The position numbers and the translations under genes were made by a program. A model generated the notes under the pieces. That model was not told the origin of the DNA, ran no database searches, and was given only the letters and a program-made list of their open reading frames with translations. A stretch of DNA of 20,000 nucleotides from the IMG/VR virus record IMGVR_UViG_3300034759_000219; one strand, given 5' to 3'. Position 1 is the stretch's first letter; each line of letters starts with the position of its first letter. This DNA is from an uncultured virus (IMG/VR IMGVR_UViG_3300034759_000219) (Duplodnaviria; Heunggongvirae; Uroviricota; Caudoviricetes). This document shows, piece by piece, positions 1 to 20,000 of the stretch.

Positions 1-3000
1 TTTAAGCCAAACATGTTAGCCACAGCATAGACACGATATGCGGTGTTACACAGGAAATTGAAACAATCGTACGATACAAAAACCGTTGAAGCTGTGGTTT
101 CACAATTAGAAAAAAGAGACTAGATAGATAGAATCGCAATGTAGGCTGTAGTAGCTGTAGAACTCGGGTGTTGTAGAACTACGCCTGCAGATTTGCACGC
201 TCTCTCAGATGGTGATATTACAGCCTAGTCGTTTTCTGCATAGGTATAGCACATGTATTCAATTCGAGACTAGATTGGCACTTCAACATTTGACGGAATA
301 TTTTCGTATACATTGAGGTCTGACTTATAGCAAATAGTACGTGACCTAGCCGTCCAATCTCGAGATGAACTAACAAGTAGAGAAAACGATTCTACAATAC
401 TTGGCGGCGTCGGCTAGATAATAAGGCGGTCTACAGACAGCTCGTCGCTATTGAAATATATAAAAGACAAGATGGTCATCTATCATAGTATTTCTCAGGA
501 CCAACTCAATATAGGTCTCAATATAGGTGGCGCTCCAGGTGGCAGTCGCACATCTTCAGATATGCCATCACAGCAAAATTTGTATCACTAGTAGTACTGC
601 TGTTACTCGAAACTTGTCGATTAGGTCTAGTCTGATGTTTAGAATTAGTACTATGTCACCGTACTTATGGTAGATGATGTAGACTCATTGCAGACATTAC
701 CAAAGTTATCCAGATTTGGCAGGTGGCTAGATGGTTAGGTTCACTTCATTTCGTGTCTCATAGAGATGCTACTGCAATTCTCTACGGATGAAATCCAGTA
801 GCTATTGCAGAGTGTAGGCATAGATGTTAAATAGTACAGTACTATACCATTTTAGTTGGACTACAGCTTAAGTGATATATTCACAGTTGCACATCCAGAC
901 AGGTTCACTTGGATATATGACCTAATCGAAAAATAGCTAAATATGCATAATACAGTCAAGCAGGCTATACGTACCAGCTTCCCAGGTAAGATAGATGAGA
1001 TATTAAGTCAAACTAGAGAGCTTAGAAGCGCAAAAGCACTATAGCTCATGGACTTTGAACAAGGTGGCAGTATAATAAACGAAGTTATACAACAAAAGTA
1101 CTTGAATGAGCCTGTTGCGACAGATATAGACACAGTTGCAAATGTACCTGTAGATGTCGACTTGGAAAAATTCAACAATTGGCTTGAGACGGTAAAAGGC
1201 TATGACTTTGATACATAGCAAAATAAGCTTGGTATCCAACCTGTCCTAAATGAGCTCAACCAATCACTGGCAATTGGTAGTTCAGCAATGATGTTCAAAA
1301 ACGTCCTTGCAATAAACTCCGCAGATTATTCAAGTTCGATATTATTCGAGTAGATGTACAACCTGTTGACAACTTCGTATGATATAGACTATCTGACACC
1401 AAACGCTCAGGTCTTGTTCATATACAGGCATGATATATAGCCAATATTCTATCCGCAATCGACTTAGGTAATCACATACAATTCTATATAGCAACTTAGC
1501 ATAGTCAAGCAAAAAGACAATCCTGTACATGTCGCAGATTTACTGCTTACAAACATGACTGGTGTAATAGACCCAGCTAATATATAGCTTGCTGTGTACG
1601 GAAAGACAGATTAGGTACCAAATTCAATTTAGAGGCTGTTCATAACAACTGGTGTCGAAATAGCTATACGACTTGGCTATGGCAGAAATATATCTCGCAT
1701 GCCAATTGTATTCCAAGGCTTTATCTAGGCAGTGCAATAGACAAACAATGCGGTGCATATAATTGCAGAAGGATATGGCGCATTATTAACAAGGTAGATC
1801 TTTGAAAAGCGAAAGCGAATTGGTGGCTTGGCATCTAACCCAATTGAGCTTGTATACTAGGCACTTAATAAGACTCAAGCTACACAATTCGGGCTAAAGG
1901 GCTTAATTGAGAACGTTGTAGCGAATGTCATGCAATTGAAATTAGACGATATGCTAGCTACGTCTTATGTAAATAAGCGCCTCCTACCGTTATTAAGAAC
2001 GACAGATTAGGTTGTGAACATATACTAGCCTACCGAGTACTATAATGGATATGGCAAGAGCTCGTACGGTGTATTCAAGAACTTTGAGACTTACTTTTGC
2101 GAATACAATGCGAAACCTGGTGATTCATAGTGGAAGCTTATACAAGACTAGGTAGACATGATGCCAGGTTATATAACTGGCTTTGTAGACTATGGTATAG
2201 GCCAGCAACGTGTGTTCTTTGGCAGACCGTTTGACCCTGCTAAGTTCACACCTACACCATTTACAGAACAGCAATTAAGCCAGCTTCAGAAGTCTGTCGA
2301 GTCAGTGTCTTAGCTTGAATTGCAAGACATAAAAGAGACAATTAAGCGTATACTTACAGAATGCAAAGAACTGCCTTTATTACCTGGTACACGCGAATAT
2401 TCAGAACAAGAAAAGCTTGAGATTGCACATTGGTTTGAGGACTAGCTAACTCGCATGAAAAACGAGTACAATTTCGCATCCCAAATCTTGGCTCAGTTTA
2501 AGAACAGTGAACTTGAGTCTGTCTTAGAGCAGTTAAACCCCAAAAACATACCGTTTTTCAGTTGGGATGTGAATGAACCAAGTAAGTTACGGATCATAGA
2601 CATGCTCAGAGAGTCTGCATAGGATTACACAAAGTAGTACCTATTCTAGGAGTATGTATATTAGCTTAGGAAGATACAAGAATTTGCAGATTGCTACAAA
2701 GATAAGCTATTAGCCTCAACACGAGCATAGCAGATAATAGAAAATACCACAATCTAGATAGACCAAACAGCTAGGTCGGCTACTGAGTATGCACTATTCA
2801 CACGACTTTCCAAGTCTGCACAGTATAGGGATATATACAATCGAGCTATAATTTTAGGTACAAAACCGTATTAGAGTATAGTACCTGTATCTAGCGAAAT
2901 AAATCTTATAGACAACTCCATAACTTTAACTACACGCGATATCGCAAATGAAGTAATTTTGTATTCGCCACCGTTCTTCCAAGATTGGTTCTTCTTAATT

Positions 3001-3876
3001 AGATTTGGATAGTGGATAGCAAATGCGCTGTCTGGATTCCAGGGTATAACAAAATACAATGGCAAGAACTACACTGTGACTACGATTACAGTAGATGACG
3101 ATATACCAGATGAATACAAAATTCAAAAGGTGGAAATTGTAGACTACGCAGAAGTGCTACAACAAAAAGTACTGGTTGGGACATCTAAACTCATGAAGCA
3201 CCTACAAACCATGTACGATGGCAATTTGACAATGCTTGGGTACCAGCTTTTGAAACCGCACGATAGGATTGTGCTAAATGACTCTGTAAATAACATGTAG
3301 GGCTGGTAGGTTGTTAGAGATGTCATACACAGGTACGATTAGCAAGTTGGATTTATAACACAGTTCAGTATAGAACCTGAGATTGAAGTGCGAGATTTGC
3401 ATGTGTCATCTCTGAAATAGCTTCTAACACGTACAATAATGGTTGCTACTGGCTTGTTACCTGTCATAGTCTGGGTATTCAGTGCGCCAATTGGGTAGGT
3501 TGTAACTGCATTTTAGCTTTCAATGAGCTTACAGCCGTTATTCAGTTCGTTACTTTAGAAGTACGTGCCAATTAGTCCATCGTTCAAAGCTGTAGATTCC
3601 GAATCGTCTTCATAGCAGATTTCACTTTCGCGAGTTGTAAATCCTATCTTTGTAAAGCCTATAGTGAAGTCGGGCATAATATACAGTGCTGGGCTGGAAG
3701 GTTCAAAATTTAACGAATAGGCAATTGGAGTATCTGGCTTGATAAACGATGCAAGAACAGGTATCAAGTACTTTACAGAAGGGCTCAAATAGTTCGGCTA
3801 GTAGTTCCAAGAAGGGCTTGCTATCTTAGAAGGTTAGATAGACATCGCACTCAAAGACCTGGAGAGTGGTATGTGA
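1..3876 (+). CDS. Large virion protein with baseplate-hub (gp27/gpD-like) motifs, 5'-truncated, >1290 aa, TAG read-through
   Basis: Frame +1 is interrupted only by TAG until TGA 3874-3876. Motifs LSIVKQKDNPVHVADLLLTN, IAIRLGYG..MPIVFQGFI..V..IIAEGYG and MYDGNLTMLG..LKPHDRIVLND..M*G..VRDVIH..GFIT resemble myophage hub proteins. It lies upstream of the gp25-like and J genes. Confidence 0.7.
505..528 (+). repeat. 12-bp perfect tandem duplication (CTCAATATAGGT x2), in-frame LNIG-LNIG
   Basis: Directly visible at 505-516 and 517-528. Confidence 0.85.
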
Positions 3877-4109
3877 TGTTTGTTAAATCGTACGATGTTA
3901 TGTCACTTGATATGCGCAGAGGTGTGGTAGAGATACAAGTTGAAAACGGTGAAGTTATCGAATATCCGTTTCAGTTTATTGGCATCAAAAACACAAAAAT
4001 AAGCTAGAGTGATGTCTCGGCTATGGTAATTGGCGAAGACAGGGTAAATGCAGTTGCAATCTTGTTCCCCAAGCATAAGCTTGTGACAAAACAGATTGAG
4101 CAGGGGTGA
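3876..4109 (+). CDS. Hypothetical baseplate-region protein, 77 aa (possible OB-fold like a spike N-terminus)
   Basis: TGATG overlap with the upstream gene. Begins MFVKSYDVMSLDMRRGVVEIQVENGEVIEYP, has 1 in-frame TAG, ends at TGA 4107-4109. Confidence 0.6.
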
Positions 4110-4113
4110 GCAT

Positions 4114-4467
4114 GTGGAGAATATCCTAAAACAGGTAGTTTAGTCTCTTGAGGAGTCTTAGCTGAAAAAGACATTCGAATCTGTTGTAATAGACACCATG
4201 AAAGGTGACAATTAGTTTATAAGGATACTTGGCAGTCAAATAGACATACATGGCACAAATGAAAACCATATCCGACTCGATGGCGAGACACAAGTTAGAG
4301 GCTAGCTCAGGTTTTTAGGTAGCCCAGATTAGTTAAAATTTGGTGCATTACACCAGATGTCGGGTTAGACTTTGTCCTTTGTACCGTCTACTGGTATATC
4401 GCCATTGCCAGTATTATAGCCACACAATCCAATTTAGCCAATTGTTTAGCTTATAAATGGTTTGTGA
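4114..4467 (+). CDS. Hypothetical baseplate-region protein, 117 aa
   Basis: GTG start after GGGGTGA. Open apart from TAG until TGA 4465-4467. Beta-rich middle segment FIRILGSQIDIHGTNENHIRLDG. Confidence 0.6.
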
Positions 4468-4476
4468 GGTGCAAAT

Positions 4477-4893
4477 ATGCGCGATATAAAGATTTCAAAT
4501 GGTGACATAGTCTTCAATGAAGCGGATTTTGCAAGTGCAGATAACTATTAGTAGGTTTAGAATGTAGTGCGAAATATAATTTTCACACGGCGTGGATCTA
4601 TGAAACAAAACACTACATTTGGCTCAGATTTATTACATAACAAAGCGATTTCTGAGCTGTAGGTGCGCTCTATTGATGACATTGCGTCTTATATAAAAGA
4701 AGACATGATGTACTCAATTTGGCTCACTAATCCAGGCTTGTATAAATTACTAAAGTGTGAGTATACCATAGACGAGGAAAACAAGACCATATACTGGCAG
4801 TTTTATATACAAGACAGCAGTGTCTTTGTACCATTGATGCTAGATGTCGGTACTGTACAGACGCAAATCGGTATAAAGTTAGTCTTCAAATGA
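4477..4893 (+). CDS. gp25/GPW-like baseplate wedge protein, 138 aa
   Basis: SD GAGGTG then ATG 4477. MRDIKISNGDIVFNEADFAS..V*NVVRNIIFTRRGSMKQNTTFGSDL matches the gp25-family T..G....FGS.L pattern. Directly upstream of baseplate J. Confidence 0.75.
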
Positions 4894-4902
4894 GGTGTTT
4901 TT

Positions 4903-6045
4903 ATGTTTGAATCTAAATCACTAAGCAGGATGATAAGCGATGTCGTAACAAGTATAGTATCAAAAACAAACATAGAGTCTGTAGAACCTGGTACAGTGCT
5001 TAGGTAGCTTATAGACTAGCAGGCATTGCAGGTATACGAATTACAAAGGTTTGTGTAGCTTTTGGCTTCATCTACCTTTTTAACAGAATAGTCAGGTCCA
5101 TTTTTGGATACGATTGCGACAATTTTTGGCTTAGCACGTCAGCCTTAGACAGTCGTCTAGTCTGTTGGTGGGATAAGGTTCTATACAGAAACTGGGGATT
5201 AGATTTGTAACTACATTAGTGATAGCTTCTTCAGTGAAAACCAGGTTATTGTGTATGACAAGTATGGCGGGTAGTATAACGTAGAACGCACCTAGATACC
5301 ATAGTACAAGATGTCACACCAATATGTCACATTAAACTAGACACCGATAGAAATAGCGAGAGAATCTATTTCGGCTGGCGAGATAAATTAGTACACACCT
5401 ACAATACCAGGTGTGTTGGTTACTAATACATCAAACCTACAACTTGTACAAAGCGCAGAAACAGATTCATAGCTTAGATACAGAATATAGTAGCATCTAA
5501 ATAGCTATAGAATGGCTACGTCTTAGTAGCTTAGGCTATAGTAGATGTCCGTACCTGGTGTCTAGGATTAGCGTGTTATTGAATTCCCACGTGGTATTGG
5601 ATCTGTGGACGTGTACATACTTGGGCTTGACATAAATACGGATGAATAGCTAATTCAACCTGTCTTGGAGTAGGTCAAGCCGTATGTTTAGGCTGGCATA
5701 GACCTAGATGTGAAGACATTTATAAAGACATACGTCATACTCGGCGGTATTGTAAGATAGGTTTAGAATGCCAATCAATAGAACGTATTAGACCAAATAG
5801 AGTCAGTTTAGCGGTCTGCGATAGACATAATCCAGCCTGGTGGTACAATGAACAAATTCGACTTATTGAGCCAAATAATTCGCAGTTGCGATCTTATCAA
5901 GACCATAGACGATTTTGCGGTTTATATAAAGTAGCCATCGAAATTTTAGGTGCCTAATAAGTTGTATTAGGACACCTATTATTGCTCTGAAAAGGAAAAG
6001 TTACTCTTAGCGCCCACAGACTGGCAGGTGTTTAAGATATTATGA
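4903..6045 (+). CDS. Baseplate J/gp47-like protein, 380 aa (31 in-frame TAG by manual count)
   Basis: SD GAGGTG. Motifs PGTVLR*LID*, FLTE*SGPFLDTIATIFGLARQP*T, AETDS*LRYRI, SVPGV*D*RVIEFPRGIGSVDVYI and V*AGI. Ends at TGA 6043-6045. Confidence 0.9.
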
Positions 6046-8099
6046 GACCAATCTTTGTCAAATATGACGGCCAGACACTGTCGTGGTTACATACCGCGCC
6101 ATAGCCGTACACTGTATATGTACGCAAATTTAAAGAGACTGCGTACAAGGTATTTGCTCAGACAGATCAAAATTCAATACCATTTAGCGATCTAGATGTC
6201 TAGATACAAATTAGACCAGTTGGCACATAGCCAAACTTTGAACAAGGCGATGATTACTACATATTTTCACAAGACAGAATACATACATCTCCAAACCTGT
6301 CGCTTTCCTTTCTAATGGACATATTCAGAAACTAGCTACCTGAATAGATTACAAAGCGGTTTTCAGATGTATCAAATGTCACACAACTTGCAGATTAGCT
6401 GTCCTAGCCTGGCGATTTTATAGCATTATCACTTCAGCGTGTATTTGCCGAGCGAAGTAAACTTGCCAGGATAGAGTTTAAACCTGCTAATAATTAGTAC
6501 ATAAAGTATGCTGGCAAATTTGATAACATATTCGCATTTGAGTATTCGCATTTGTTCAACACTGTAAGAGCTGTCAGACTTGTGTATAATCAAGCTCCAA
6601 CATTTCCTGATTCATACGTACCTGTGGTTGTTACAGACCTAAACATAGCGGATATATTCAGCACGAACGTGGTACATGAGCAAATAGAACGTGGCATAAT
6701 CTTTGAAGACAACTCAAAATGTTCCGTCCAATTTGATATGAACGCTTGCAAGCTGAACGTCATCTCACAGCTTACAGGTAGTGTTATATAGGACATGTCG
6801 TTTCCAGATGTACGCGAGCCTGGTGGATTTGAATTCGATTGGCACTATATATATATCTTGGACAACCATCTTAAGGTCATGCCGTAGCTTTACGATTACT
6901 AGGAGCTAGACTATGCGTATTTCGATTATTCTGGTCCATTTAAGCGCTTATTTATCTACCACATGCCAGAATACCAGACTTAGTACATGACACCAGTTGC
7001 AGAAATAAGAGTTGATGTACCACCAGAATGGAATATCGTGTAGATAAAGATGTTCAGTGGATAGATGCTATAGCTACTTGAAGATGGCAGAGTTTAGATA
7101 CTGTAGCCAAAATACTATTCATACTACAGTGCTGGCAGCAGTATAACAATCAATGACACGTTTTAGCAGGTATAGTTTTATAACAGCCAAACCAACAATT
7201 CAGTTATGTAGAGACTGAGAAAATTCAAAAAGTTACCAACAACCCTTGATGACTTGTTATACCTGTACGGTATGCACAGGTCTGAAGCTGAAGAGCCAGC
7301 TCGGTAGCTGTACAGGTTGTTTGTGGATATGCGCAACAACTAGCATGTGAACCAAACAATGATTAACCAAATCCTGCCAAATTAGTACTACCAAGTTACA
7401 AGCTTGAATGAGTTAGAATTAGAATATGGCAGTGACCTTATAGACCAGCTTGTCCAGATAGGCCAGCTACGTACATAGCCTACATTCAGTACATAGCAAT
7501 TTGATACATCTGACATAGCAACCAAACCTGCATTATAGCTTAAGAAGACGCGATATGATACTGGAGTATATGAAAACGCAGTTACTTCTATAGTCGACGC
7601 GATCCAGCGGCCTGTCATTATAAACAATGCCAACCCGATATAGGCTCTCAACTGTGAGTATATGTTTGTGAACGAGACTAGATAGTAGCTACAGGTTAAC
7701 AGTACAGATTGGCACGTGTTTAAACCTGGCAAGGTATGTATACAAGTATAGCCTTCTTAGTTGCAAAGTATAATACACCTTACCGAGCTTGATGCCTAGC
7801 TCGTATCGTCTAGCTTGTATGGAAAGAAGATTGTGCTATAGAGGTATCCATACGAACGAATACAAGTAGGCGACAAATACTTCAACGGCATAGGCCTAAT
7901 AAATGGCATGTACTAGTATTAGGTAGACAATACCGAGCTTGCCAAACCGCAAGTGTACTTTTATGGCGTTTGTGGGAATGAGCAATATCCACTAACTGCG
8001 TTTTCTGTAGACCAAGTTGCATATTAGTACATCTATGAAACAATTTAGCTTTCAATGCCATTAGAACAGTTTTATCTAGTCAAGGTGGTGGGTTCGTGA
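6042..8099 (+). CDS. Large baseplate/tail structural protein, 685 aa
   Basis: ATGA overlap with J. Frame +3 is open apart from TAG until TGA 8097-8099. LDDLLYLYGMHRSEAE resembles the LD..G..R..E motif of wedge (gpI-like) proteins. Confidence 0.65.
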
Positions 8100-8827
8100 A
8101 AGATATAGACCTGTTAAAGTAGAACAGGACTGTAACGTACATAACATAGTAGCACGTAGCTAACTATGTAACTGGCTTTGAGATCACGTACAATGTGTAC
8201 AAGCAGTTTCTAAAACGGCTTGTTGTGTTCGATGTCAGGACAAAGTACCATGAAAATGATAACTTTCAGCCATATCGCGCTAAAGTTGCATTTTGCGCAG
8301 GCGAGTTAGGTAACTACGACCCGGCAAAATTCGACCTTGCAAAGTTTTCATTTGACAGGTTCTAGAGTGAAATGTACCAATCTAGTACAGGATGGAATAT
8401 GTCATATTGGAACATCTTCGATACGCATATAGATTTTCGAGATTATGTGACTTAGCCGTGTATAGATTAGACATTATACGAGATTAATACGGCTGGCACA
8501 TTGCCATCTTTAGATGCAGATAACCCAAATGTGATAGTTGTGTCCTACAGACATGGCATACTTGTACCGAATATACAGCTTGTAAACGGCAAGTTTCAAT
8601 TTAGCTTCTCATATCCTGTCGATGACTATGAGCCACTTATTTGGTTTTACAACAGCAAGTTGACCTTATTCGTCCAAACGACAAACCTTGTACATATAGA
8701 TGGCGAAGTAGACGAGATGAGTGTTAGCTAGTATTGTAGTGTGCCATTAGATATCACACTAGATGAACTTGGTTATATGTAGATAGACCAGCATAATTAC
8801 AAAAAGGTTGTTGATATTTCACTCTGA
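8096..8827 (+). CDS. Hypothetical structural protein, 243 aa
   Basis: GTGA overlap with SD AGGTGG. Includes track ORF 8501-8731. Ends at TGA 8825-8827. Confidence 0.65.
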
Positions 8828-8864
8828 AAGGAGGACGTGCTGATACTTTACAGCACGAACAAAT

Positions 8865-9746
8865 ATGGTAACACTGCCATTTAAGATGTATCCGCCATAT
8901 TAGAAAATAATCAAGTCTGGACATGAAAGCAACAACGCTATACTATTGGCTATATAGGAAGCTGTAGACAAGACAGCAGATAAGTTGTTTTATATCCAAG
9001 CTCAGGGTAGACATCCAACTTATACAGTGACATACACAGACCAGCAGTTACCAGGTTATATATACACAAACGTTGTTCATCCTAAAACTGGTCTGCCATT
9101 GTTTTATATGCAAGAACTGCCATATTTTTCATTCAAGACGCAAGCTGAGCTAAATCAGTAGATTAAGCTTGTCTCGTCTTCCGACGAATAGGTCTCAGAT
9201 AAGTTGTATCATATAACTACAGACGATGGTATAAAGATCTGGACGAATATCAAGTCAAGTGACAGCGAAGTATTCTATATCCAGCTTGCGCCATATCCAA
9301 ATTCTGCGATTGGAGTCCAAAAGAAGATACTTTTAGATACGCGCATTACACAAGACTCATTTCAAAAGCCTAGTGAGTTCTAGTGGTAGTTAGATATCGG
9401 ATACAAAGAACGTTATGTACCAGAATAGCTAACCATAGACAACTAGATCCCACTTTTAGAGTTCACTCAAGACAAGTATACAGGCATATCAAGGCAGTAT
9501 GCATTGAAAATTGGCGAAGGTTTGTACAAGGTTCAGCCGTTGATGTACACTGAAGTATTTTGCAAATACAAAGTCACGTCTTATTCAAGCCATGGCTATA
9601 TGATGATAGACTCTGTCGAGCCTGTAGTTGAGGTATTGTGTGTATTCGAGTAGTTTGGTACACCGATATATACAGATATAAGGCAGGATTCATATTAGGC
9701 GTATGTCGCGCCATACCTTGGTGGTGAGTACCTTGAGCTCATATGA
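8865..9746 (+). CDS. Hypothetical structural protein, ~293 aa (start uncertain)
   Basis: Frame +3 is open apart from TAG from ATG 8865 to TGA 9744-9746. The strong upstream SD serves a different frame (see findings). Confidence 0.6.
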
Positions 9747-10167
9747 CACATCTGTGTTTGATGGCATCTACTAGGTTGGCTAGCCATAGATATAGGTATT
9801 GGTAAAATAGCAGGATTTATACAGTATATACCAGTACCTGAATGATACGTCTGTATTCAACCACATAAAATAGGCAGGCTCGTTCATACTGTTCCTAGAC
9901 AGTGACACATTGGTACCACTGTCTAACACTGTACAAAACTTCTTTCAAGATAGTTTGTCTGTTAATTTAAACGCGCATTAGTCTACTGACTCTGAAAATG
10001 CAAGCTTGTATATAAGTCTAGTAAGTCAATAGTCTGGTACGAGTACATAGTCTCAGCAAGCTTCCGAGTATGTACAAGTTACAAATGAACTCGAACCACC
10101 TTTTGTGTTTGGCAAGTCTGTGTTTTCGTCTGATAACTTCATTATGTCGTAGTTTTGCAAATCCTAA
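9733..10167 (+). CDS. Hypothetical protein, ~144 aa
   Basis: TTG 9733 after GGTGGTGA (GTG 9721 or 9724 are alternatives). Open apart from TAG until TAA 10165-10167. Confidence 0.55.
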
Positions 10168-10181
10168 TGTTAGTCACTACT

Positions 10182-10188
10182 GGAGGTG
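10182..10188 (+). promoter_or_regulatory. Shine-Dalgarno GGAGGTG for the tail-fibre gene, whose second codon is TAG
   Basis: GGAGGTG lies 5 nt upstream of ATG 10194, which is followed by TAG 10197-10199. Confidence 0.8.
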
Positions 10189-10193
10189 TGTGT

Positions 10194-10958
10194 ATGTAGT
10201 ACACTCCCGAGACAATCTACGTAGGCAAGATCATAGCTGCAGAATGGGGCCAAAAAATAGAACAGATGTTTCAACGCATGGGCAACTATATGGGTGTAGT
10301 AGACTCGGTATCATAGTTGCCCAATGTATCTGAAGCTGCCGAGTCAGATTGGTACATAGTTAGACAAGAGAGATAGATATATTAGAAGATAAATAACCAA
10401 TGGGAAAACATTGGCGGAGTCTCATATGACCAGCTGATAGGTACCGTGCCAAGGTCATAGCTATCTGGTACGTACGATATAGATATCACTGGTACATAGG
10501 CGCAATAGACAAAGCTATAGACGTAGCATACGATAAATGGCGTAGGTTTCGATGGCACACAGAACATAACAGTTACATAGACTACACCCAATAAGGTGAC
10601 ATTCAACTCATCTGGTGGATAGCAACCTGGCACTACATTCAACGGCTTGGCTTAGATTACAGTCTCATATGAAACAGTTGGAGCATAGTAGGCATCTCAT
10701 ACACATACAAATTACCTAAGCCGAGATGGCGGCACAATGAATACAACCACACTTGTGACTAATTTAAACGCAGACATGGTAGATGGATATCACTAGTCCA
10801 GCTTTTCACTGTCTTCGCATACGCATGATTCAACTTACCTCAACAAAGCAGGCGATACGATGACTGGCAATTTAAATTGTAATTAGGTGGTAAATTGCAA
10901 TTAGAATGCAAATAGCAGACTTGTATTACCGGTCGGGACAAATAAATATGCAACATGA
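10194..10958 (+). CDS. Phage tail fibre protein, 254 aa
   Basis: N-terminus M*YTPETIYVGKIIAAEWGQKIE. Fibre motifs T*AQ*TKL*T*HTINGVGFDGTQNITV, SYETVGA**ASHTH, NLNADMVDGYH*SSF, SHTHDSTYLNKAGDTMTGNL. C-terminus RLVLPVGTNKYAT, then TGA 10956-10958. Confidence 0.9.
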
Positions 10959-10968
10959 GGTGGTATGA

Positions 10969-11439
10969 ATGCCTGTAGCTGGATCTGTGTGGATAGAAGG
11001 GTGCAGTTTAAAATTCATAAACCAATATGGTGTATAGCGTGCCTTGACTGGTACATCACTAGGCTCGACAAGTGCTAAACCTGGGTCTGTATGGGTAAGT
11101 GGCGCTTACATATACTATGTGTGTCAGAATGCGCATATACACATGTGCAATTATAGATATACAAATATAGGCCCCATTCAGGGCAAGCCGGGCTCTGTTT
11201 GGATATCATCACAAGACTTATATTATGTAGATCAAGACGGAGTTATAAGGGAAGCATGTACTGGGTGTGAATAGTACTGCACGTGCGATATGTGTGCTGG
11301 ATGCGATGCGTATTGTTGCGGGGCATGTGATACGACATGCGATGGTTGTGACACATACTCGTTTTGTGGAACATGCGTTGAATGCGACGGGTGTGATGCA
11401 TATTCATGCTAGTGTATGGTATGCGATATAGGTGTCTAA
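10969..11439 (+). CDS. 156-aa protein with three GSVW repeats and a C-terminal Cys-rich CxxC[DE] repeat domain; putative radical SAM substrate or fibre-associated protein
   Basis: SD GAGGTGG. Repeats AGSVWIEG, PGSVWVSG and PGSVWISS. Last 60 aa are CTGCE*YCTCDMCAGCDAYCCGACDTTCDGCDTYSFCGTCVECDGCDAYSC*CMVCDIGV (18 Cys). Ends at TAA 11437-11439. Confidence 0.85.
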
Positions 11440-11473
11440 CAATTGAGTGACTTTAGCTAAAGGAGGCCTGCTG

Positions 11474-12613
11474 TTGCGACACGTCACGCCACACGAGTTG
11501 GTAGGGGCAGTTAGAAATATTGTTGTTGACAATTAGCTTACTTTAAACATCAATTCTGGTGCAGATTAGTGCCAATTATAGTGCGTATACTGCTCGGTAC
11601 GGCCGTTTAACACGCATGACTTTCGAGAAATGACCAAGCCTGAGTTAAGAATATAGCTCGAATTTGCTGGCAGTGTACTTGGTGATAAGCTAAAGCATAT
11701 ACATTTCTTTGGGCGGGAACCATTAATGTCACCGACAATAATTGAAGAAGCGCGTAGGCTTATGCCCAATGTCACCATAACGATAACAACAAACGGTGTT
11801 GCACTCTAGCAGGATAAGCAGTTGTAGAAAATGCTAAAGCGAATCAACGCAGTTGTAACTATACTATCGATTGACGGACCATACCACAATTCACATAGGC
11901 CTACAAGAACTGGAGAAAATTCACTAGATCTAGCAATACAAGCCTGGGAACAACTTGATGATTATAAATTTACGCGCACATCCGTCAGGTCGACATACCT
12001 ACCAGGCGAGAGCCTTGTCGACTATTTCAAATTCTAGCAAGATGTTTTACATGGCTAGAGAATTACGCCAATGCCAGATATACACACAAGTATGTTCGAT
12101 AGCAAAGACGTCGAGGAGAAGGTTCGCGAGCTAGCAGATTATTTTGGCAACCAGGATCCACCATCTGAGTCGTACAAGGGATACCTGTATGAACTTGAAG
12201 GCAAGAGGCGAAAGAGACGTGCGTTTTGTATTGTAGGCATGTTTGCGATTGGACCAGGGCTGGATGTATATACCTGTCATCATTAGCCGGATGATGTCAA
12301 AATAGCCAATATAGCGCAAGGAATTGTGTACGACGAAAACATAAAATTTGTACTAAATGCGCGCAGCATGTCTGTTGACACAGTTGAAAAATGTCTAACA
12401 TGTCACAACAGACAATTTTGCCCAACCATAGGGACGTGCTCAATGTAGTTTCTTAAGGCTGGTAACATTATGGAACCAAATGACAGCTTCTGCGAGTTTT
12501 CCAAGGGATTCTAGCATGGATGTTTCTACTGGTTATCGCTACGCACGAGAAGTAAACTGCTTGACGCTTTGAACAAGATAGGAGGAGATGCATATGAAAA
12601 TACAGTTTCTTGA
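11474..12613 (+). CDS. Radical SAM enzyme with C-terminal SPASM domain, ~379 aa
   Basis: SD AAGGAGG 11460-11466 and TTG start. CxxxCxxC is CQL*CVYC (11570-11593). Also FFGREPL, ITTNG and LSIDG..HNSHR. SPASM cysteines in C..FAIGPGLDVYTCH, CLTCHNRQFCPTIGTC and FC. Joins three track fragments via TAG. Confidence 0.92.
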
Positions 12614-12884
12614 TGAAAATAATAGCGTTTTGTACGAGACGGATGGGGTATATGCAGCCAAAAGGCTTGTGTATGATCACGAGGAATTTGCATGGGTTGA
12701 ACATATCTAGATCAGATGCTAGGTTGATTACGACCAATTAAAAAACCTCATACAGCCAGTAAAGAAAGTAAAGATCATAAGCAGCACGGGCAGCATTGAG
12801 TACGACATCACTGTGAGTACCAAGGCAACAATCGCAAGGAGTGCTTCAGATAGTACAAAAACCATGATTGTGATCCAGCAATAA
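12594..12884 (+). CDS. Small hypothetical protein, 96 aa (probable paralog of the next gene)
   Basis: SD AGGAGGAG. Begins MKIQFLDENNSVLYETDGVYAAKRLV, has 2 TAG, ends at TAA 12882-12884. Confidence 0.75.
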
Positions 12885-12900
12885 TGTTAGGAGGGATCCA

Positions 12901-13203
12901 ATGCTGAAGATCATACTTACCGATGCAAACGGTACGCAAGTTGGAGAATTTGAAGTACTAAGGTAGAAAAGGGTTATAACCAAGGGCTAGGCAAACTATG
13001 TAGACCAGCTTATCTGCCAGTTGCGATAGTCATTTGAACAAGTTGCTTAGTGTATACCGATTGCACGAGGCGCCTAGATATACGCAGATGATGTCGCACT
13101 ACTTGAAACGTCCATGTCGACAGAAAAAGGCGTTGGTGTTTCGGAAGATATTACCACACAAGGTACAGTGACACTAGACATAGTCATGGATGTTATCAGT
13201 TAA
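12901..13203 (+). CDS. Small hypothetical protein, 100 aa (probable paralog of the previous gene)
   Basis: SD AGGAGGG. Begins MLKIILTDANGTQVGEFEVLR*KRVI, ends at TAA 13201-13203. Confidence 0.75.
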
Positions 13204-13258
13204 TTGTTAAGTTTCACTTGTAACCTTTTGTGTGGCACAGCTAAGGAGCTGAAAGATA

Positions 13259-13489
13259 ATGTATTAGTTAGCCAACGGTAGTAGTACGGTATACAATGTA
13301 ACCGCCTGTTCAGATGACTTATCACAACTGCACGTGAAAGACCTGGCATCTTCATACAAACAGTTGATAGGAAAATGTCTAAGCTTATATTCAGAAGACG
13401 GTGTGCTTGCCTGCACGGTTGATCTGAAAAATATTGAGATACTTATGGATATAGGCTCACAAGACGGCATAATCATAATAAACAGGTGA
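13259..13489 (+). CDS. Small hypothetical protein, 76 aa
   Basis: SD AAGGAG. Begins MY*LANGSSTVYNV, ends at TGA 13487-13489. Confidence 0.6.
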
Positions 13490-13493
13490 ATTA

Positions 13494-15413
13494 ATGCCAT
13501 TACCGTATTGGATTGAGCATGACCAAAATGACAATGCAACTGGATACGTCTATGTAAAAGTGCCATCTATACCAGCTAACTAGCAAACTGCTATAACAGC
13601 TAGTTTAGATGCATCGTGCCAACCTGATGGCTCTAACACGTTTGTACTATTTGACGACTTTTTGTAGACTATCAATACTAATGTATATGACGTGTTTACT
13701 GGTCCGAATGCTCAATAGACAATAGAAAATGGCAAGTTAAAGCTCGTATGTAATAACTCAGTGCATACAGGCGCAACACTGATATCAAAGCAGTAGTTTC
13801 CAGACCAATAGTACATCCTAGAGTTTCTAGGTTGCGTTGTAAGTTAGTACAATGGTGGTGCCCCAACACTAAACATTGGCTTTACAAACAAGTCTCAGTA
13901 TGACAGCTCATACTATTTCAGATATGCGCCAATCGCAGCATAGGAAATATACGAGTATACATCCTATAATAGAGTTATGGTATCTGTATTCAATGACCAA
14001 TGGGAGTCTGGCTCATTGTCCCAGTATGAAACGATCATAAACAAATGGGCCCGAGTTGTATAGTCTATATCGTTTACACAGAAAAAGACTATAGGTACAT
14101 TCAAATGGGGCAACTCATTAGCTACGGTAACATCCCCTGTCGGACAGTAGCTAGACGGGTCGAAGTATTTTCAAATCAACTTTGGAGAGTATCAGAGCAA
14201 CAAAATAGCCTATCTTGATTGGTTCGCTTTGAGAAAATACGCAGATGTAGAGCCAACTGTGTCTGTACAACAGGTCGGGCAGATGTATGTCATAACTATT
14301 ACAAATCCAAACTAGTACTAGCTCAGTGACTACCAAATTAAGATACCAATCTCGTAGTTGTCTGTTACATCACCATCCACAGGAATTAGGTTTGACACAA
14401 ACCTAAGGCAAATAACTATTCAGACGGTTAGAAAGCTGGTATAGCAGAATGGCTACACAGCATCTACACGTAGAGTGTAGACTGGATTGATATCACAACC
14501 AGTGCCTCTTTCAACTAAGGTCGTCGGCCTAAACAGTGCAAGTATTGTGAATATGGCTATACCAGCATCTACATAGATCAAATACTCAGGCAACACATCG
14601 CAGTCTGGATTTTCAGTATCTACAATCATAGGTAGCGAAGTCATTGGCGTACCGCCTGCTGTACAACCGTACTTGTACTATCCACTCACGAGCGACTTTT
14701 TAAACTACGGTACATAGGGTTCAGCGTGGGATCCAAACTAGGTGTTTAATGTCAGTATATCCGCTACAGGCTATTCTTCTATACAAACATAGTAGAATTT
14801 TAATGGTACCAACTCGAGGATAAGAGTACGTACATACGAGTCTTTGGATACGATATACAAAAATAGAAGCTGGTCAATTTCACTTTGGCTTTCCTAGCGC
14901 CAACTGGCTGGTACAGTGTACAACTATGGCTATGGTGGTTCATCAGTCAGCTCGACAAGCGAAGCTACAGGCCATACACTTAGGATAATCAACTACAACA
15001 ACACTCCAATTCTTTAGATTGTAGCTTTTTAGGCAGGACAAACAAACGAGACATCCACGTATTTTGACGGCTTTAAGTATATAAGCAAGAGTGGGTATGT
15101 AAGGATATACGGTGTAGTTATAAACGCGAATGTACTAAACCATGTGGTTCTAACCTATAACAACAGTACGAAAAGGCTTTGTATGTATCTGAACTCGAAC
15201 CTTGTACATGACAACGTCGAGTTCACAAACCCGATGTACTGGAACCAGTATGACAAAGAGCCGTTCACTATAGGATAGCACACATACGACGATGGAGGCT
15301 CTGAAGGTCCGCCAAGCAACTTCTTCGATGGGTTCATATAGCACTTTATGTACTATACAGATACCGTATTAACACAGGACAATGTTAACTTCTTGTACAA
15401 TATGCGCACTTAA
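13494..15413 (+). CDS. DUF2341-like plus LamG/ConA-like domain protein, 639 aa (putative receptor- or glycan-binding tail appendage)
   Basis: DUF2341-type motifs MPLPYWIE..YVKVPSIPAN..DGSNTFVLFDDF, YLDWFALRKYADVEPTVS and ITITNPN*Y*LSDYQIKI..GIRF. LamG motifs YYPL, **NFNGTNSRI, WSISLW, NHVVLTYN, MYLNS, FTIG*, FFDGFI and LTQDNVNFLYN. Ends at TAA 15411-15413. Confidence 0.85.
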
Positions 15414-15457
15414 TTTAAGCTTTTGCGTCTTGAGTATTATACACACGAGGTGATGTT

Positions 15458-16198
15458 ATGGCAAAGGTACCAAGTGTTGTTATAGCTACTCCAGCATATG
15501 GAAACATGGTACATGTGAATTATCTGCACACAATCTTTTCACTTCAACAGCGCCGTGATATCAGGATAACACTGCTTACAATTGGAAATGAGTCGCTAAT
15601 TACAAGAGCACGAAATAACCTTTTAAGCATGTACTACCACCATTTTTAGGATTGGGATTATTTGTTGTTCTTAGATGCAGATATTGGTGTAGATGCGTCT
15701 GGAATAGTTACAATGGCAAATCGCAGGTTAGATATGTGTTGTGCACCTTATAGGCTTAAAAACCCAGCTGTTGTACAACTTGCTGTGACTAAGGTTATAG
15801 ACGACTCGACCTTCCCACTTGTAGAAGTTGAACATGCCGCAACTGGTGTCATGATGCTCAGCAGAAAACTAGTTGAAGATGTTGTTAGTTATGCCAAGAA
15901 GAACAATTTGTACTATCCAGATCCAATGTAGTATACAGAAAACAATGTAGATACAAACGTAAGACGGGACATATATGACGTGTTTCAAGTCGGGATAGAC
16001 AAGGACATAAATACATATCTGTCTGAAGATTACTGGTTTTGTAGGCTTGTAAGACAACTTGGATACAACGTGTACGTAGACATGTCAGTTGCAACAGTAC
16101 ATTCAGGCACACTTGCACTACCGTACAATATTTCCATGGCTGTCAGGCCTACGGCGCAGGAGGATGAAAGCAATGAAGACACAACTGAATCTAAGTGA
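15458..16198 (+). CDS. GT-A fold glycosyltransferase-like protein, 246 aa
   Basis: SD GAGGTGA. Motifs VVIATPAYG, ESLITRARN, DYLLFLDADI (DxD), ATGVMMLSR, YLSEDYWFCR and VHSG. Three same-frame track ORFs are joined by 2 TAG. Confidence 0.85.
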
Positions 16199-16703
16199 TA
16201 ATGTATGTGTAGCTTAGCCTACACAGTCGAATGACTCAGTCCGTATAGTAGGGCATGTATGTGTATATTAGCAAGACAAACACGGCAATGTCAGAGTCGT
16301 TGCTGAAAGCGACAACACAATTACACAAGCAGGTAAGCAGATGATATACCAATTTTTACAATCAACATCAAGCCAATAGGTGGCATAGAACATAAACTAC
16401 ATAGCAGTTGGTACAGATAATACACAACCGTCTTAGTCTAATACCAAGCTATACAACGAAATAGGCAGGAAACAGATTCTGTCCAGGTACATAGGCGATA
16501 CAGTCGCAAAGTTTTCAGTCTAGTTTGAAATGAATGAATAGAACCCACCTGCAGGTCAGGCTATTACGGAAGCTGGGCTGTTTTAGAACGGTACAGCTCA
16601 ACCTGATACTGGTACATTATTTGCCAGGGTCCTGTTTTAGCCTGCAATATTGAAACAAGAAGACGAGATGCTTGTTGTAGTCTGGACGGTATCTATCACT
16701 TGA
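16173..16703 (+). CDS. Tail-collar/baseplate fibre-attachment-like protein, 176 aa
   Basis: SD AGGAGG. Motifs NTITQAG, YIAVGTDNTQPS*SNTKLYNEIGRK, FEMNE*N, ITEAGLF, GTLFARVLF and K...LVVVWTVSI. Ends at TGA 16701-16703. Confidence 0.8.
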
Positions 16704-16866
16704 CAAATTTAGATGTTACATTTGCCCCGCAGTATACGCCAAATAGAGCTATGACTGCGTGGGCAAAATTGTCATTGTCTATGCAATTGAGCACACGCAG
16801 TACAAACATGCCTGCGATCAGTATCTAAGCTAATATGAACTTTCTGCTTTTGAATTTTTCCTCCAT
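16696..16866 (-). CDS. Putative holin, 56 aa, 2 TM segments
   Basis: SD GAGGTGA. MEEKFKSRKFILA*ILIAGMFVLRVLNCIDNDNFAHAVIALFGVYCGANVTSKFVK has the SRKF...Y.G.N pattern of small phage holins. Confidence 0.75.
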
Positions 16867-16871
16867 ACAAC

Positions 16872-17243
16872 TCACCTCGTGACAAACAAAAGTACAACTC
16901 CGCCAATTGCTATAGCTGCTACTACAGCAAATGCGGTCTATGAGTTTTGCTATGTTTGAAGTTTCTTTTCCAACTCTGTCACTTTTGACTCGTATGCGGA
17001 TAGTGCACTCTTATAGTTTTCAATTTGCTGTTTGAGGTTCTATGTGAGTTGTTCAAGCGTCTGAATTTGCATCTTGTAGTTTTGGTTTAGCTATTCGATT
17101 TTAGCTATATATTCAGCAAGCTGTATGACAGCTTGTTCTTCCAAATAATACCTGCCATCTTCGCTTTTGGTAATTATCTTGTACTCTTGTGTAAAAGCAC
17201 ATATTGCGCATAAGATTAGCAGGATTGTCAATATCTTTTTCAA
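16872..17243 (-). CDS. Signal peptide, coiled coil and C-terminal TM protein, 123 aa (spanin-like)
   Basis: SD GAGGTGG and TTG start. MKKILTILLILCAICAFTQE, then a heptad-rich middle, then AFAVVAAIAIGGVVLLFVTR. Adjacent to the holin. Confidence 0.65.
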
Positions 17244-17253
17244 GCCAGCCACC

Positions 17254-17514
17254 TCACTTTTTAAAGAGCTTGTTTATATAATCTGCTGCATCTTGCTAAT
17301 TATCGAATTTCTTTTGAGACTGAATTTGCTGTTCTTGCTTCTTAAGTTCTTGAAGTTTTTGCTCAAGTTCGGCTTGTTCTTGTTCAAGTTGCTTGTTCTA
17401 GTCTAAGCTCGGCTTTGGCTTGTGTGATTTAAGTGTGGTACCTAATACAAACGCAGCAATCGCCAAAATTAGCCACCAAAACTTTTTGAGAAACTCTACA
17501 ATCTTTTTCCACAT
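17254..17514 (-). CDS. N-terminal TM plus coiled-coil protein, 86 aa (i-spanin-like)
   Basis: MWKKIVEFLKKFWWLILAIAAFVLGTT followed by QLEQEQAELEQKLQELKKQEQQ. Has 2 TAG and a TGA stop. Confidence 0.65.
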
Positions 17515-17516
17515 AG

Positions 17517-18749
17517 TTATCGCCTCTTTGATAGTATTATCCTTACATCTGCTAGACTAACGTTGTGTATGGAACTAGCTGCATATTCCACGTACGGCAG
17601 TACGGTCTTCTTTTGTGAGTCTACGTCCCACATGTACATAAACCTGTCAGGTTCTCTGGTAAATGGTTTACCTGTAAGCATGAATAATGGCACGATGATC
17701 CTATCAGATGGGCATATATACCACAAAAACATTACAAGCTAATCTACGCAAGATGCACGTAAATTGCCATATTCTGTATACTGAAGTGGTATCGTACCTT
17801 CACCATACTGGACATTGCCAGCTTGACCTAAGAATGTAGAATCGAGGTATTTTATGATATCTGTTAGTTTTTGCTTTGTATCGGACGCCTATACCTGTTT
17901 CATAGTGTCTGTATCCGTTGAAGACAGCTAAGCAACTAGGTAGTCATACTAGGTCTATCGACTTATACCTAAGTCTTTTTCAATCCCGCCATACACGCCA
18001 CCTATTGTATCGTTTAGAGATAGAAAGCCACACTAGTTAAATTGGTAATTGTAGCTTTGTGTTAACTACGCAAATCTATCCAAGTCTTTGCACTTGATGT
18101 ATATATTTCCTTTTGTCATTGGCTAAATACTGTAACATATAGCAAGCCAGCTTGGCGTACCTGTACTGTCTAACTAATATGGATATCTTGTGACTTGTAG
18201 CATGCGCGTATATACCGCATGCTAATATTCAAATGCTGGCTTGAATGTAATACTTGGATTCTGCACTAGTACAAGCTAAAGGCTGAACTATTCCTAGTTG
18301 ATGTTATACCCTTCCAACATATTGAAAAGTTCAATCTAATAGTACAGTTCTTCTGTTGTTAAAGCTTGTTTCCACTAAGCATCTGCAAGCTTGTCATTTA
18401 CTACAGTCTAGCCTGTATTGCTGAGTGGAATATACGTAATCCCGTCTAATGCGATCTAATCATCTGCATGCTTCTTGTTTGTAAATGTCCCGTACATGAA
18501 CGAGTCGTACTAGCCGGTTTTCTTAAATGCGAAGTAATCATCACAGACTTCACATGGTTTCTTCTTTTGTTCTAAGATCTGTGCAAGTGAGCTTGAATTG
18601 TCATACTGCCTTGAATTTATATAGTCATCTCGCTATTTGACATACTCATCGTACTATGGCAGTCTTGAGTATGACTATACAAACTTCTATGTGAACATGA
18701 CATACAAGCTTAATGGCATTGAATTTTGAGCTGTCTTTATAAGCTACAT
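17517..18749 (-). CDS. Hypothetical protein, 410 aa (probably structural)
   Basis: TAATG overlap with the upstream gene. Begins M*LIKTAQ, is open apart from TAG until TAA 17517-17519, and includes track ORF 17517-17732. Confidence 0.7.
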
Positions 18750-19135
18750 TAGACCTAACCCCAGTCACCACTAAGTGATGGTATTATAACTAAGCTCAGC
18801 TTCTCACCTGTAAAAGACACGCCAGTTGGAGGTTGTACCTTTAAGTAGAAGTCGACAGATTCGCCTTCCTATAAGCCTTCGCAAATTTGTATATAGCTCT
18901 TATGTCCACATACTCTTGTAAAGGTTACATTGTCTAAGCTCATATAGACCATCGAAGTGTCAGATGAGCCGTCTTCAAATAAATCCCCACCAAATGGGAT
19001 CGATTTGAGATACATGGAACTGTCAAAGCATGTAGCTACAGTTCGGCCTATGTCTGTATTCTACGTTACAGTGATCTTAAACAATGTATCACTAAGTCTT
19101 GTAGCCTGTACGTTTACTAGCTAGAGCTCGGTCAT
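18749..19135 (-). CDS. Hypothetical beta-rich protein, 128 aa, similar to the C-terminal domain of the upstream gene
   Basis: SD GAGGTGGTG and TAATG overlap. MTEL*LVNVQATRL...GL*EGESVDFYLKVQPP. Confidence 0.7.
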
Positions 19136-20000
19136 TACACCACCTCAAAGTCTATGTATAGTGGTATACCTGTAATAGGTAATATATCGGCTGGCTAGTT
19201 TACTTTTATGTATATGTCGACACTACTGCCGTTATTGAGCGTATCTTGCTTGACTGTAACGTACTGCTCACCTACAATCTTGAACAGTGTATCAAATGAT
19301 GTACCAACTTCAATTCGTGCAGTGTCTTGCGATATAGCCTGGTTGGATATTCCAAACATGCGCCTTGCTAAGTTATGTTCGCTGTCGTATGGATCGTTTT
19401 CAAACCCTAACCTGATGTTCATGATATCAGACCCAGTACTGTTTACCAATGAAAGTTTGTACAGCTTTGACTCTTGCGGGAACAGTGCAATTGTGTCAAG
19501 TTGGCTTTCAAATCCATCTTGTAATAGCCTTATGAACCCTATGTACTTTATGTCCAGTAGCTCCGTATATATAGGCTATAATGCCCATATGTCCCTTACC
19601 ACTTGCAAATTAAGCTAGTTATATAATCCAACTCGTCGTATAGCCTGTGCCTGAACGTATCTGTACTAGTACGTTGTTCTTACAGATTGGCTTGTACTGG
19701 TATGCGATTTGGTTATGCTACGTACAAGTTGTAAAATTGGGAATCCGCCATCTTGTACAACCCTCTGTGTCTGAAACAGTTCTTGTACAAAGCCATAGTA
19801 GTCTCTTAATGTTTGAGACACGTAGCTTGCTAGTATTACAGTGCTCCTACTAGTTTGTAAACTCAATTCATCTGGCAAAATAGGCTTTCTGGATGTCTAT
19901 GTTATATATTCGATTAGAGATATCAACTCACGAGTAGTTTGTAAACTCAATTCATATTCAATTAGATATATCAACTCACGAGTAGTTTGGACAAGGCGTG
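19135..20000 (-). CDS. Repeat-containing (QTxR, ~14-16 aa period) fibre-like protein, 5'-truncated
   Basis: One frame joins track ORFs 19666-19878 and 19195-19449 via TAG and is open to the window edge. Ends PLYIDFEVV, then TAA 19135-19137. Confidence 0.7.
19906..19989. repeat. 48-bp-period imperfect tandem repeat (coding; QTTRELI[YS]LIEY), with a partial third copy at 19851-19871
   Basis: TATCAACTCACGAGTAGTTTG occurs at 19921 and 19969. TAGTTTGTAAACTCAATTCAT occurs at 19851 and 19935. Confidence 0.85.

Follow-up and report, generated by a model that had tools for sequence, protein, structure and literature searches.

Stop codons that phages read as sense have been described with few meanings. 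In the available part of the Borges preprint, phages that differ from their host in code show only TAG read as glutamine and TGA read as tryptophan, and TGA to glycine is given for phages whose host does likewise. The accessible portion of the paper by Cook et al. (PMC11210395) has translation tables 15 and 4 only, and the residue in Lak phages is called unknown there. The word "alanine" has 0 occurrences in the accessible text of the phage-recoding papers listed, and we found no report of stop-to-alanine reassignment in phages in the searchable literature, to which subscription-only papers do not belong. According to the accessible part of the relevant report, UAG as alanine is established only in the mitochondria of one green-algal clade, the Hydrodictyaceae with Neochloris, where UAG is decoded by a tRNA(CUA) grouping with tRNA-Ala(UGC) (PMC6821328). 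Here we describe a stretch of 20,000 nucleotides (nt) from an uncultured tailed phage (IMG/VR record IMGVR_UViG_3300034759_000219), which as a whole is called the window, and in particular its baseplate J gene at positions 4903-6045, in which TAG very probably encodes alanine.

The window resembles the phages of code 15 (crAss-like, Lak, Agate, Garnet/Topaz), which have a suppressor tRNA(CUA): the virion genes of both are densely set with in-frame TAG, translation still stops at TGA and TAA, the coding density breaks down when table 11 is applied, and the recoding is conserved at the level of the lineage. It differs from them in that TAG appears to mean alanine rather than glutamine, the decoding tRNA is unseen, and TAG is used more heavily, at 4.4% of codons and in every open reading frame (ORF) of the window. 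With the algal mitochondria it would share the same new meaning of UAG, which was likewise deduced from conserved positions. However, the algal case, as set out in the accessible part of the source, is that of a eukaryote organelle that has only a few genes and a release factor of its own, in which UAG is thought to have been lost before it was reassigned (PMC6821328), whereas here a virus of a prokaryote works inside the translation system of its host.

TAG as a sense codon in baseplate J and across the window

ORFs of at least 80 amino acids (aa) were called over the window with table 11 and with TAG read through. Table 11 gave 8 ORFs covering 10.7% of the window, whereas 20 ORFs covering 94.4% were obtained when TAG was taken as sense. 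These 20 ORFs, which lie on both strands, contain 281 in-frame TAG among 6381 codons (4.4%); every one of them has at least two, the first is found at codon 30 or earlier in 17 of the 20, and all of them end with TGA (12 ORFs) or TAA (8 ORFs). A codon count over the window, in line with the genome-wide codon table proposed as a check when the DNA was read from its letters alone (hereafter the sequence-only reading), sets these 281 TAG beside GCN at 4.6% of codons. TAG is a sense codon across the window, because the homology and the fold of baseplate J run across 31 TAG codons, TAG occurs in all 20 ORFs, and the coverage rises as described. The entire window (1-20000, both strands) can be described as a TAG-recoded virion and tail module in which only TGA and TAA serve as stops.

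Judged from homology and predicted fold, 4903-6045 (plus strand, 380 codons, TGA stop) is a real gene for a baseplate J or T4 gp6-like wedge protein. PHROG 6 (baseplate wedge subunit) covers residues 3-326; with TAG read as alanine its E-value is 1.1e-22, and Pfam PF04865 is matched as well. The AlphaFold model of the alanine translation has a mean pLDDT of 93.2. When this model was searched with Foldseek, 49 PDB chains were found at E<=1e-3 (best E 1.7e-20), and those listed were all baseplate or contractile-injection-system proteins, including phiCD508, phi812, Mu, pyocin R2 and T4 gp6; the TM-scores were modest (0.3-0.5), as expected for a multi-domain protein. Searches of the PDB by sequence gave nothing useful.

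The baseplate J gene has 31 in-frame TAG against 13 GCN, exactly the counts claimed in the sequence-only reading, and TAG would be 70% of its alanine codons if it means alanine. The accompanying estimate that alanine would rise from about 3% to about 12% of the protein agrees with our recount (3.4% without TAG and 11.6% with it), and the statement that TAG is at least two substitutions away from any GCN follows from the codons themselves. The three tandem TAGTAG pairs reported for 5488-5544 were found at 5488-5493, 5524-5529 and 5539-5544 on the plus strand (codons 196/197, 208/209 and 213/214). Around these pairs the protein reads ...RIXXHLNSYRMATSXXLRLXXMSVPGVXDX (X = TAG); the majority consensus of 66 homologues at the same motif is ANxxAIRxAALSVPGVADV, and the homologue P0005 has NSAAVRLAALAVPGVADV.

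Tandem pairs are not avoided in the ORFs of the window, where 10 were observed and 12.3 expected. The base after TAG is C in 32% of cases, vs 16% after GCN, and this bias was considered as an anti-termination signal. It was rejected as such, since the other NNG codons are biased to almost the same degree (C 24%, G 16%) and GCG similarly (C 31%), and no context signal specific to TAG was detected in the window ORFs.

If TAG means alanine, it makes up 49% of the alanine codons in the window, and GCN and TAG together account for 9.0% of codons. The TAG share of alanine codons varies among the ORFs from 11% in a glycosyltransferase-like ORF to 90% in ORF 4096-4467, which has one GCN and nine TAG in its 123 codons. 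The use of TAG and that of GCN across genes gave a correlation of -0.26 (p 0.26); adding TAG lowers the dispersion across genes, but not specifically for alanine. The glycosyltransferase-like ORF (15458-16198, plus strand; phrog_1574, E 1e-20) has TAG at 2 of its 19 alanine codons, far below its neighbours, and may be a recent acquisition or may be expressed before the code switch.

The residue at TAG

We estimated the residue at TAG from homologues of baseplate J. The profile was made of 147 standard-code homologues out of the 150 phmmer matches listed (497 relatives in all at E<=1e-3); two recoded relatives translated with glutamine (P0002 and P0003) and two fragments (P0030 and P0105) were left out. 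When the window protein was aligned to this profile with X at each TAG, 30 of the 31 TAG positions fell in match columns. The homologue residues in these columns were on average Ala 24.7%, Ser 11.8%, Thr 8.8%, Val 8.0%, Glu 3.9% and Gln 2.8%, and alanine was the commonest residue in 13 of the 30. It was strongest at position 63 (123 of 138 homologues), followed by positions 209 (111/147), 213 (106/147) and 263 (83/147). The sequence-only reading had named orthologues with mostly CAG/CAA, TCG or GAG at these sites as the sign that alanine was wrong; at the residue level, Gln, Ser and Glu are each rarer there than Ala.

Summed over the 30 columns, the log-odds were +14.2 nats for Ala, +2.6 for Ser, -1.8 for Thr, -6.3 for Gln and -8.3 for Lys, and the posterior for Ala was 0.99999. 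As a control, the same sum recovered the true residue in 17 of 19 sense classes, failing for Cys (n=3) and His (n=2). Bootstrapping over the columns gave a difference of 29.6 bits between Ala and Gln (95% interval 10.5 to 50.1) and of 16.7 bits between Ala and Ser (95% interval 3.6 to 30.1), the latter being at or below zero in 0.5% of samples. The alanine reading was never below the glutamine reading in identity to the 66 homologues, and the mean pLDDT with the same alignment was slightly lower for glutamine (91.6) than the value given above for alanine. In the model 15 of the 31 TAG sites are helical, vs about 34% of all residues, which is suggestive only.

In further translations of the ORFs, 10 to 17 residues were put in turn at TAG, and each version was scored against curated libraries (PHROG and Pfam). 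For baseplate J, PHROG 6 gave 81.4 bits with Ala, followed by Ser (67.5), Gln (64.8), Thr (60.2), Leu (59.0) and X (56.0), and lower scores with Glu (55.7), Lys (55.3), Gly (51.5), Tyr (48.7) and Trp (31.6). PF04865 gave 37.8 bits with Ala, clearly above its cut-off of 21.1, and 28.3 with Thr, 23.8 with Gln, 23.7 with Lys, 22.1 with Ser and 21.3 with Glu; below the cut-off were Tyr (21.0), X (19.1), Leu (16.4) and Trp (13.3), and Gly gave no match.

A second gene, the tail fibre at 10155-10958 (plus strand; 17 in-frame TAG, matching PHROG tail-fibre families), points in the same direction. Alanine was the top reading in 9 of the 11 PHROG families that scored with several residues, and the other two were near ties. 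The clearest cases were phrog_6722 (Ala 38.8 bits, next 30.4), phrog_8378 (38.0, next 31.5) and phrog_454, where Gly was the only other reading to score (Ala 29.4, Gly 17.5). The baseplate wedge gene at 4477-4893 scored 24.6 bits with Ala and 21.0 with Gln against phrog_261, and the radical SAM gene matched phrog_14086 with the alanine reading only (32.4 bits). When the scores of the top family for six genes or domains were summed by hand, alanine reached 352.1 bits, serine 330.0 and glutamine 324.5; without baseplate J the sums were 270.7, 262.5 and 259.7 bits, respectively.

The most familiar rival is glutamine, as in phage code 15, the alanine signal in baseplate J then being a lineage-specific replacement of Ala by Gln. 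CAG becomes TAG by one transition, and glutamine is, in the available part of the Borges preprint, the only meaning that TAG is given in phages whose code is not that of their host. Weak coiled-coil matches were obtained with Gln only, namely to Rz-like spanin families (22.4 bits, E 2e-4) and to phrog_4725 (21.3 bits), and Gln lies 1-2 bits over Ala in phrog_1802 and phrog_5417. These points face a negative log-odds sum for Gln, its scarcity among the homologue residues at the TAG columns, deficits of 16.6 bits in PHROG 6 and 14.0 bits in Pfam Baseplate_J, and the preference of the tail fibre for Ala. The glutamine reading would also double window Gln to 8.8% and make the baseplate J protein 11.8% Gln, whereas the medians of its family are 3.2% for Gln and 8.3% for Ala. 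In addition, no TAG/CAG exchange is seen among the 40 listed of about 130 strain differences. We consider glutamine extremely unlikely.

Serine, or another small residue such as threonine, is a second rival. Seryl-tRNA synthetase, like alanyl-tRNA synthetase (AlaRS), ignores the anticodon, TCG is one change from TAG, and serine is the runner-up both in the homologue profile and in PHROG 6. In the C-terminal part of ORF1, a very large tail protein described below, it is even marginally on top (phrog_20474, Ser 47.9 vs Ala 47.6 bits; phrog_8809, 43.4 vs 42.1). However, the bootstrap separates the two residues in nearly all samples, serine is below alanine in Pfam Baseplate_J by the scores given above, and it is 3-11 bits under alanine in the tail-fibre families. 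Serine already takes 7.5% of codons and would take about 11.9% with TAG, whereas GCN alanine is depleted. A serine or threonine meaning thus seems very unlikely.

Several results weigh against alanine. In baseplate J itself Ala exceeds Gln in only 17 of the 30 TAG columns, so that the weight lies on roughly twelve columns in which Ala strongly prevails. No clear preference is shown by five other genes or domains, where alanine is not on top: in the radical SAM gene, phrog_1802 gave 79.2 bits with Thr, 79.2 with Tyr, 78.9 with Gln and 76.6 with Ala, phrog_13987 gave 30.6 with Lys and 25.6 with Ala, and Pfam PF04055 gave 62.8 with both Ala and Lys; in ORF 16059-16703, phrog_5417 gave 76.8 with Gln, 76.7 with Thr and 75.8 with Ala, and phrog_4176 gave 34.7 with Lys, 33.4 with Gln and 28.7 with Ala. 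DUF2341 scored 44.3 with Gly, 44.2 with Gln and 42.1 with Ala, the isolated Laminin_G_3 domain 33.5 with Arg, 32.1 with Asp and 31.9 with Ala, and the ORF1 region matching phrog_20474 scored 36.1 with Glu and 34.9 with Ala. The strong evidence for the residue is confined to two genes of one 20-kb window.

Two apparent counter-signals were rejected on closer scoring. A full-length scan had matched Laminin_G_3 with Gln, Glu, Lys or Leu only, and the isolated domain scored 25-33.5 bits for all residues, Ala being third. Likewise, phrog_20474 had favoured Gln over Ala (40.2 vs 33.5) in a 999-aa piece of ORF1; in the isolated region all residues were within 1.2 bits of Ala or below it.

The five indifferent genes or domains, together with the secondary matches that lean to Lys or Gln, could also reflect ambiguous or context-dependent decoding, in which two suppressor tRNAs give a residue that depends on the gene, or a non-canonical amino acid such as pyrrolysine. 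The phage was carried by metagenome runs of anaerobic digesters, mixed cultures, the subsurface, oil fields and sludge, and an archaeal code in which all TAG are pyrrolysine has been proposed, as far as the accessible part of that source goes (10.1101/2024.09.30.615893). Since few TAG of the indifferent genes fall in conserved columns, and the scores of these genes spread over only 1-3 bits, they argue for no other residue. Lysine is far under alanine at the informative columns, both in PHROG 6 and in the log-odds, and conserved small buried Ala positions would not take pyrrolysine. We regard this family of explanations as about as improbable as serine.

The sequence-only reading had claimed that TAG means alanine in baseplate J, and the homologue profile, the two curated profiles and the second gene all favour this residue. 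On these comparisons of sequences, it is very likely that TAG encodes alanine in this phage.

Close relatives, neighbouring genes and habitat

A protein in the public collection, P0002, has Gln at all 31 TAG positions of baseplate J and otherwise differs from the window protein once, by Pro to Gln at codon 66. It would seem to come from the strain in run X5, because this change matches the X5 difference at 5099, which is one of the two differences listed for X5 within baseplate J (5099 and 5820; 40 listed of about 130 in all). Among the 153 proteins compared, Gln exceeds 7.5% only in P0002 and in P0003, a 58%-identical relative, and these two could not serve in the test of the residue since they are translations of recoded genomes in which TAG was read as Gln. 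In P0003 the 'Q' that stands for TAG is kept at 23 of the 31 positions, the other eight having S, S, T, T, V, E, A and D; conversely, at the sites with Q in P0003 but without TAG or Gln in the window, the window residues are T, T, T, T, A, A, R, R, S, P and V. Such exchanges are what would be expected for alanine and not for glutamine. An 85-aa fragment that is 50% identical, P0030, spans four TAG positions unbroken, with A, S, A and Q, whereas P0105 is a 34-aa public fragment that ends at the first TAG of baseplate J. The earlier preference for a settled reassignment over leaky suppression fits the retention of 23 of 31 sites in P0003 as well as the presence of TAG in all 20 ORFs and its share of the alanine codons.

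None of the listed X5 differences touches an existing TAG codon. One of them creates a TAG: at 8409, G>A turns TGG (Trp) into TAG in ORF 8096-8827, which is a living example of the origin of a TAG by a single step and the one TAG gained among the 40. The listed differences are too few for a substitution pattern. DNA of the phage or of close relatives was not found in the viral, metagenome and genome contig collections, and the phage collection gave no match by blastn with the window or by tblastn with baseplate J and the tail fibre. When the 20 window ORFs were compared by tblastn with L001, a sequence found through the standard-code homologue P0005, none of them matched. The radical SAM protein, used as query in a word-index search, returned nothing at E<=1e-5, which is an over-strict limit.

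The neighbours of baseplate J agree with a contractile-tail module. A gp25/W-like baseplate wedge gene (4477-4893, plus strand, 4 TAG; phrog_261) lies directly upstream, ORF1 (13-3876, plus strand; 1287 codons, 60 of them in-frame TAG) would encode a very large tail protein, parts of which match phrog_20474 and phrog_8809 without separating the residues, and the tail-fibre gene follows downstream. The window is best explained as a tail and baseplate module from an uncultured tailed phage whose baseplate is of the contractile-tail type.

Downstream of the tail fibre, ORF 10969-11439 (plus strand) has three repeats of the 'PGSVW...' type and a very Cys-rich C-terminal tail with CxxC and CD motifs. 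A radical SAM enzyme (11447-12613, plus strand; PF04055, E 7e-16) lies directly 3' of it, and its best matches in the phage collection (L002-L004) look like SCIFF-type peptide maturases with a CNLAC... motif. In terms of sequence, the two genes look like a pair of peptide and maturase within the tail-fibre module. Strain differences cluster in the Cys-rich ORF at 11015-11432, where ten substitutions fall in 132 bases, 6 bases are deleted at 11163 and 7 bases are inserted after 11432, and the assembly of run X5 breaks at 11344-11411 into short extra contigs; this may be a variable or repeated region.

Other parts of the window also show variation. Direct repeats at 19851-19989, of 36 nt (94% alike, 48 apart) and of 21 nt (identical, 84 apart), sit at the 5' end of the minus-strand ORF 19135-19974. 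The X5 contig departs from the window at 19941 and continues with what follows the second repeat copy, which suggests copy-number variation of the repeat. Contigs from the activated-sludge runs X17 and X19 match only 13506-13561, the start of the DUF2341/Laminin_G_3 gene, with unrelated flanks on both sides and identical loose ends in the two runs, and this is possibly a mosaic junction. Two small ORFs at 16872-17631 (minus strand) each have one membrane-span-like segment and a coiled coil rich in Gln, Glu and Lys; they may be a lysis pair, and the weak Rz-like spanin matches obtained with TAG as Gln only are theirs.

Near-identical sequence was present in 16 runs with at least half of the sampled words, and 20 runs from 8 studies were listed in total. 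Their labels name anaerobic digesters, mixed cultures and, as the possible source, soil or subsurface; small shares occur in activated sludge and oil-field samples, and contigs confirm pieces of the window at 99% or more in three further studies. No RNA run was among the listed runs that carry the phage sequence.

Decoding, host and consequences

No tRNA was detected in the 20-kb window with ARAGORN or Rfam, and no CUA anticodon-like stem-loop was found outside the ORFs; both results weigh against the proposed decoding, as the decoder is unseen. It would most likely be a tRNA with anticodon CUA and alanine identity, and the phage probably encodes it beyond the window; public assemblies contain contigs of 37.6 to 75.8 kb for this phage. 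In run X5 the window is covered by contigs of 37,616 and 24,568 bases, and the same gene start is present on one of 75,826 bases. AlaRS reads the G3:U70 pair in the acceptor stem and ignores the anticodon, so that the enzyme of the host would suffice and no new synthetase would be needed. The engineered amber suppressor tRNA-Ala(CUA), in which CUA is placed on an alanine acceptor stem and the tRNA is charged with alanine by the normal enzyme, is a laboratory construct with the same decoding principle; we know of no natural phage example of an alanine amber suppressor. Sense codons have taken the same route, as CUG means alanine in the yeast Pachysolen. CGG is read as alanine in some gut bacteria, according to the accessible part of a preprint (10.64898/2026.04.02.715157). 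In these two cases the codon was captured by a G3:U70 tRNA that exploits the anticodon-blind AlaRS; they are sense-to-sense changes in cellular genomes, whereas here the codon is a stop and the genome is that of a virus. An alanine-type tRNA(CUA) is what we infer from this property of AlaRS together with the precedent in Hydrodictyaceae mitochondria, in the accessible part of its report (PMC6821328).

A mutational path from GCN to TAG is unnecessary for the reassignment, because what the reassignment needs is a tRNA. Once UAG meant alanine, TAG could arise by a single change from TCG, GAG, CAG, AAG, TTG, TGG or TAY wherever alanine is tolerated, and conserved GCG sites could pass via TCG or GAG to TAG; serine is the second commonest residue in the TAG columns. 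Release factor 1 would have to be outcompeted, inactivated or absent, because TAG lies early in the ORFs and tandem pairs occur at chance frequency, and release factor 2 alone can serve TGA and TAA. The code would also gate the expression of virion genes, as proposed for Gln-recoded phages, because no gene of the window can be translated without TAG decoding. As in code 15 phages, it is likely that the phage carries a suppressor tRNA and that late genes are gated. As a whole, the explanation in which UAG means alanine, a tRNA(CUA) decodes it and release factor 1 is ineffective appears highly probable.

The host, an uncultured anaerobe of digesters, enrichment cultures or the subsurface, might itself read UAG as alanine and have no release factor 1. 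This reading fits the occurrence of TAG in every window gene from the first codons, the lack of avoidance of tandem pairs and the absence of code-switch genes among those seen, and a code private to the phage fits the evidence equally well. We think that a host-wide code is unlikely; if true, it would make the host the first cellular prokaryote with a UAG-to-Ala code.

Alanine at TAG would break the working rule that phage TAG is glutamine, a rule that gene callers and annotation pipelines incorporate. Public protein collections carry baseplate J with Gln at all the TAG sites (P0002), the relative P0003 is likewise Gln-translated, and about 8% of the baseplate J residues are probably wrong in the database. 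The cost for annotation can be seen in the Pfam match, which is at or below the threshold with Gln or X (23.8 and 19.1 bits; cut-off 21.1) and clear with Ala (37.8).

Few amino acids have a synthetase that disregards the anticodon, and alanine is among them. A change from stop to alanine would therefore need only an altered tRNA anticodon, though no single mutation links GCN and TAG, and the heavy use of TAG at anciently conserved alanine sites implies that hundreds of two-step codon replacements would have been fixed. Should the tRNA be found, it would represent an efficient alanine amber suppressor of natural origin, and the way in which the phage handles release factor 1 would become testable. 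The finding would add a third amino-acid meaning to stop-codon recoding in phages.

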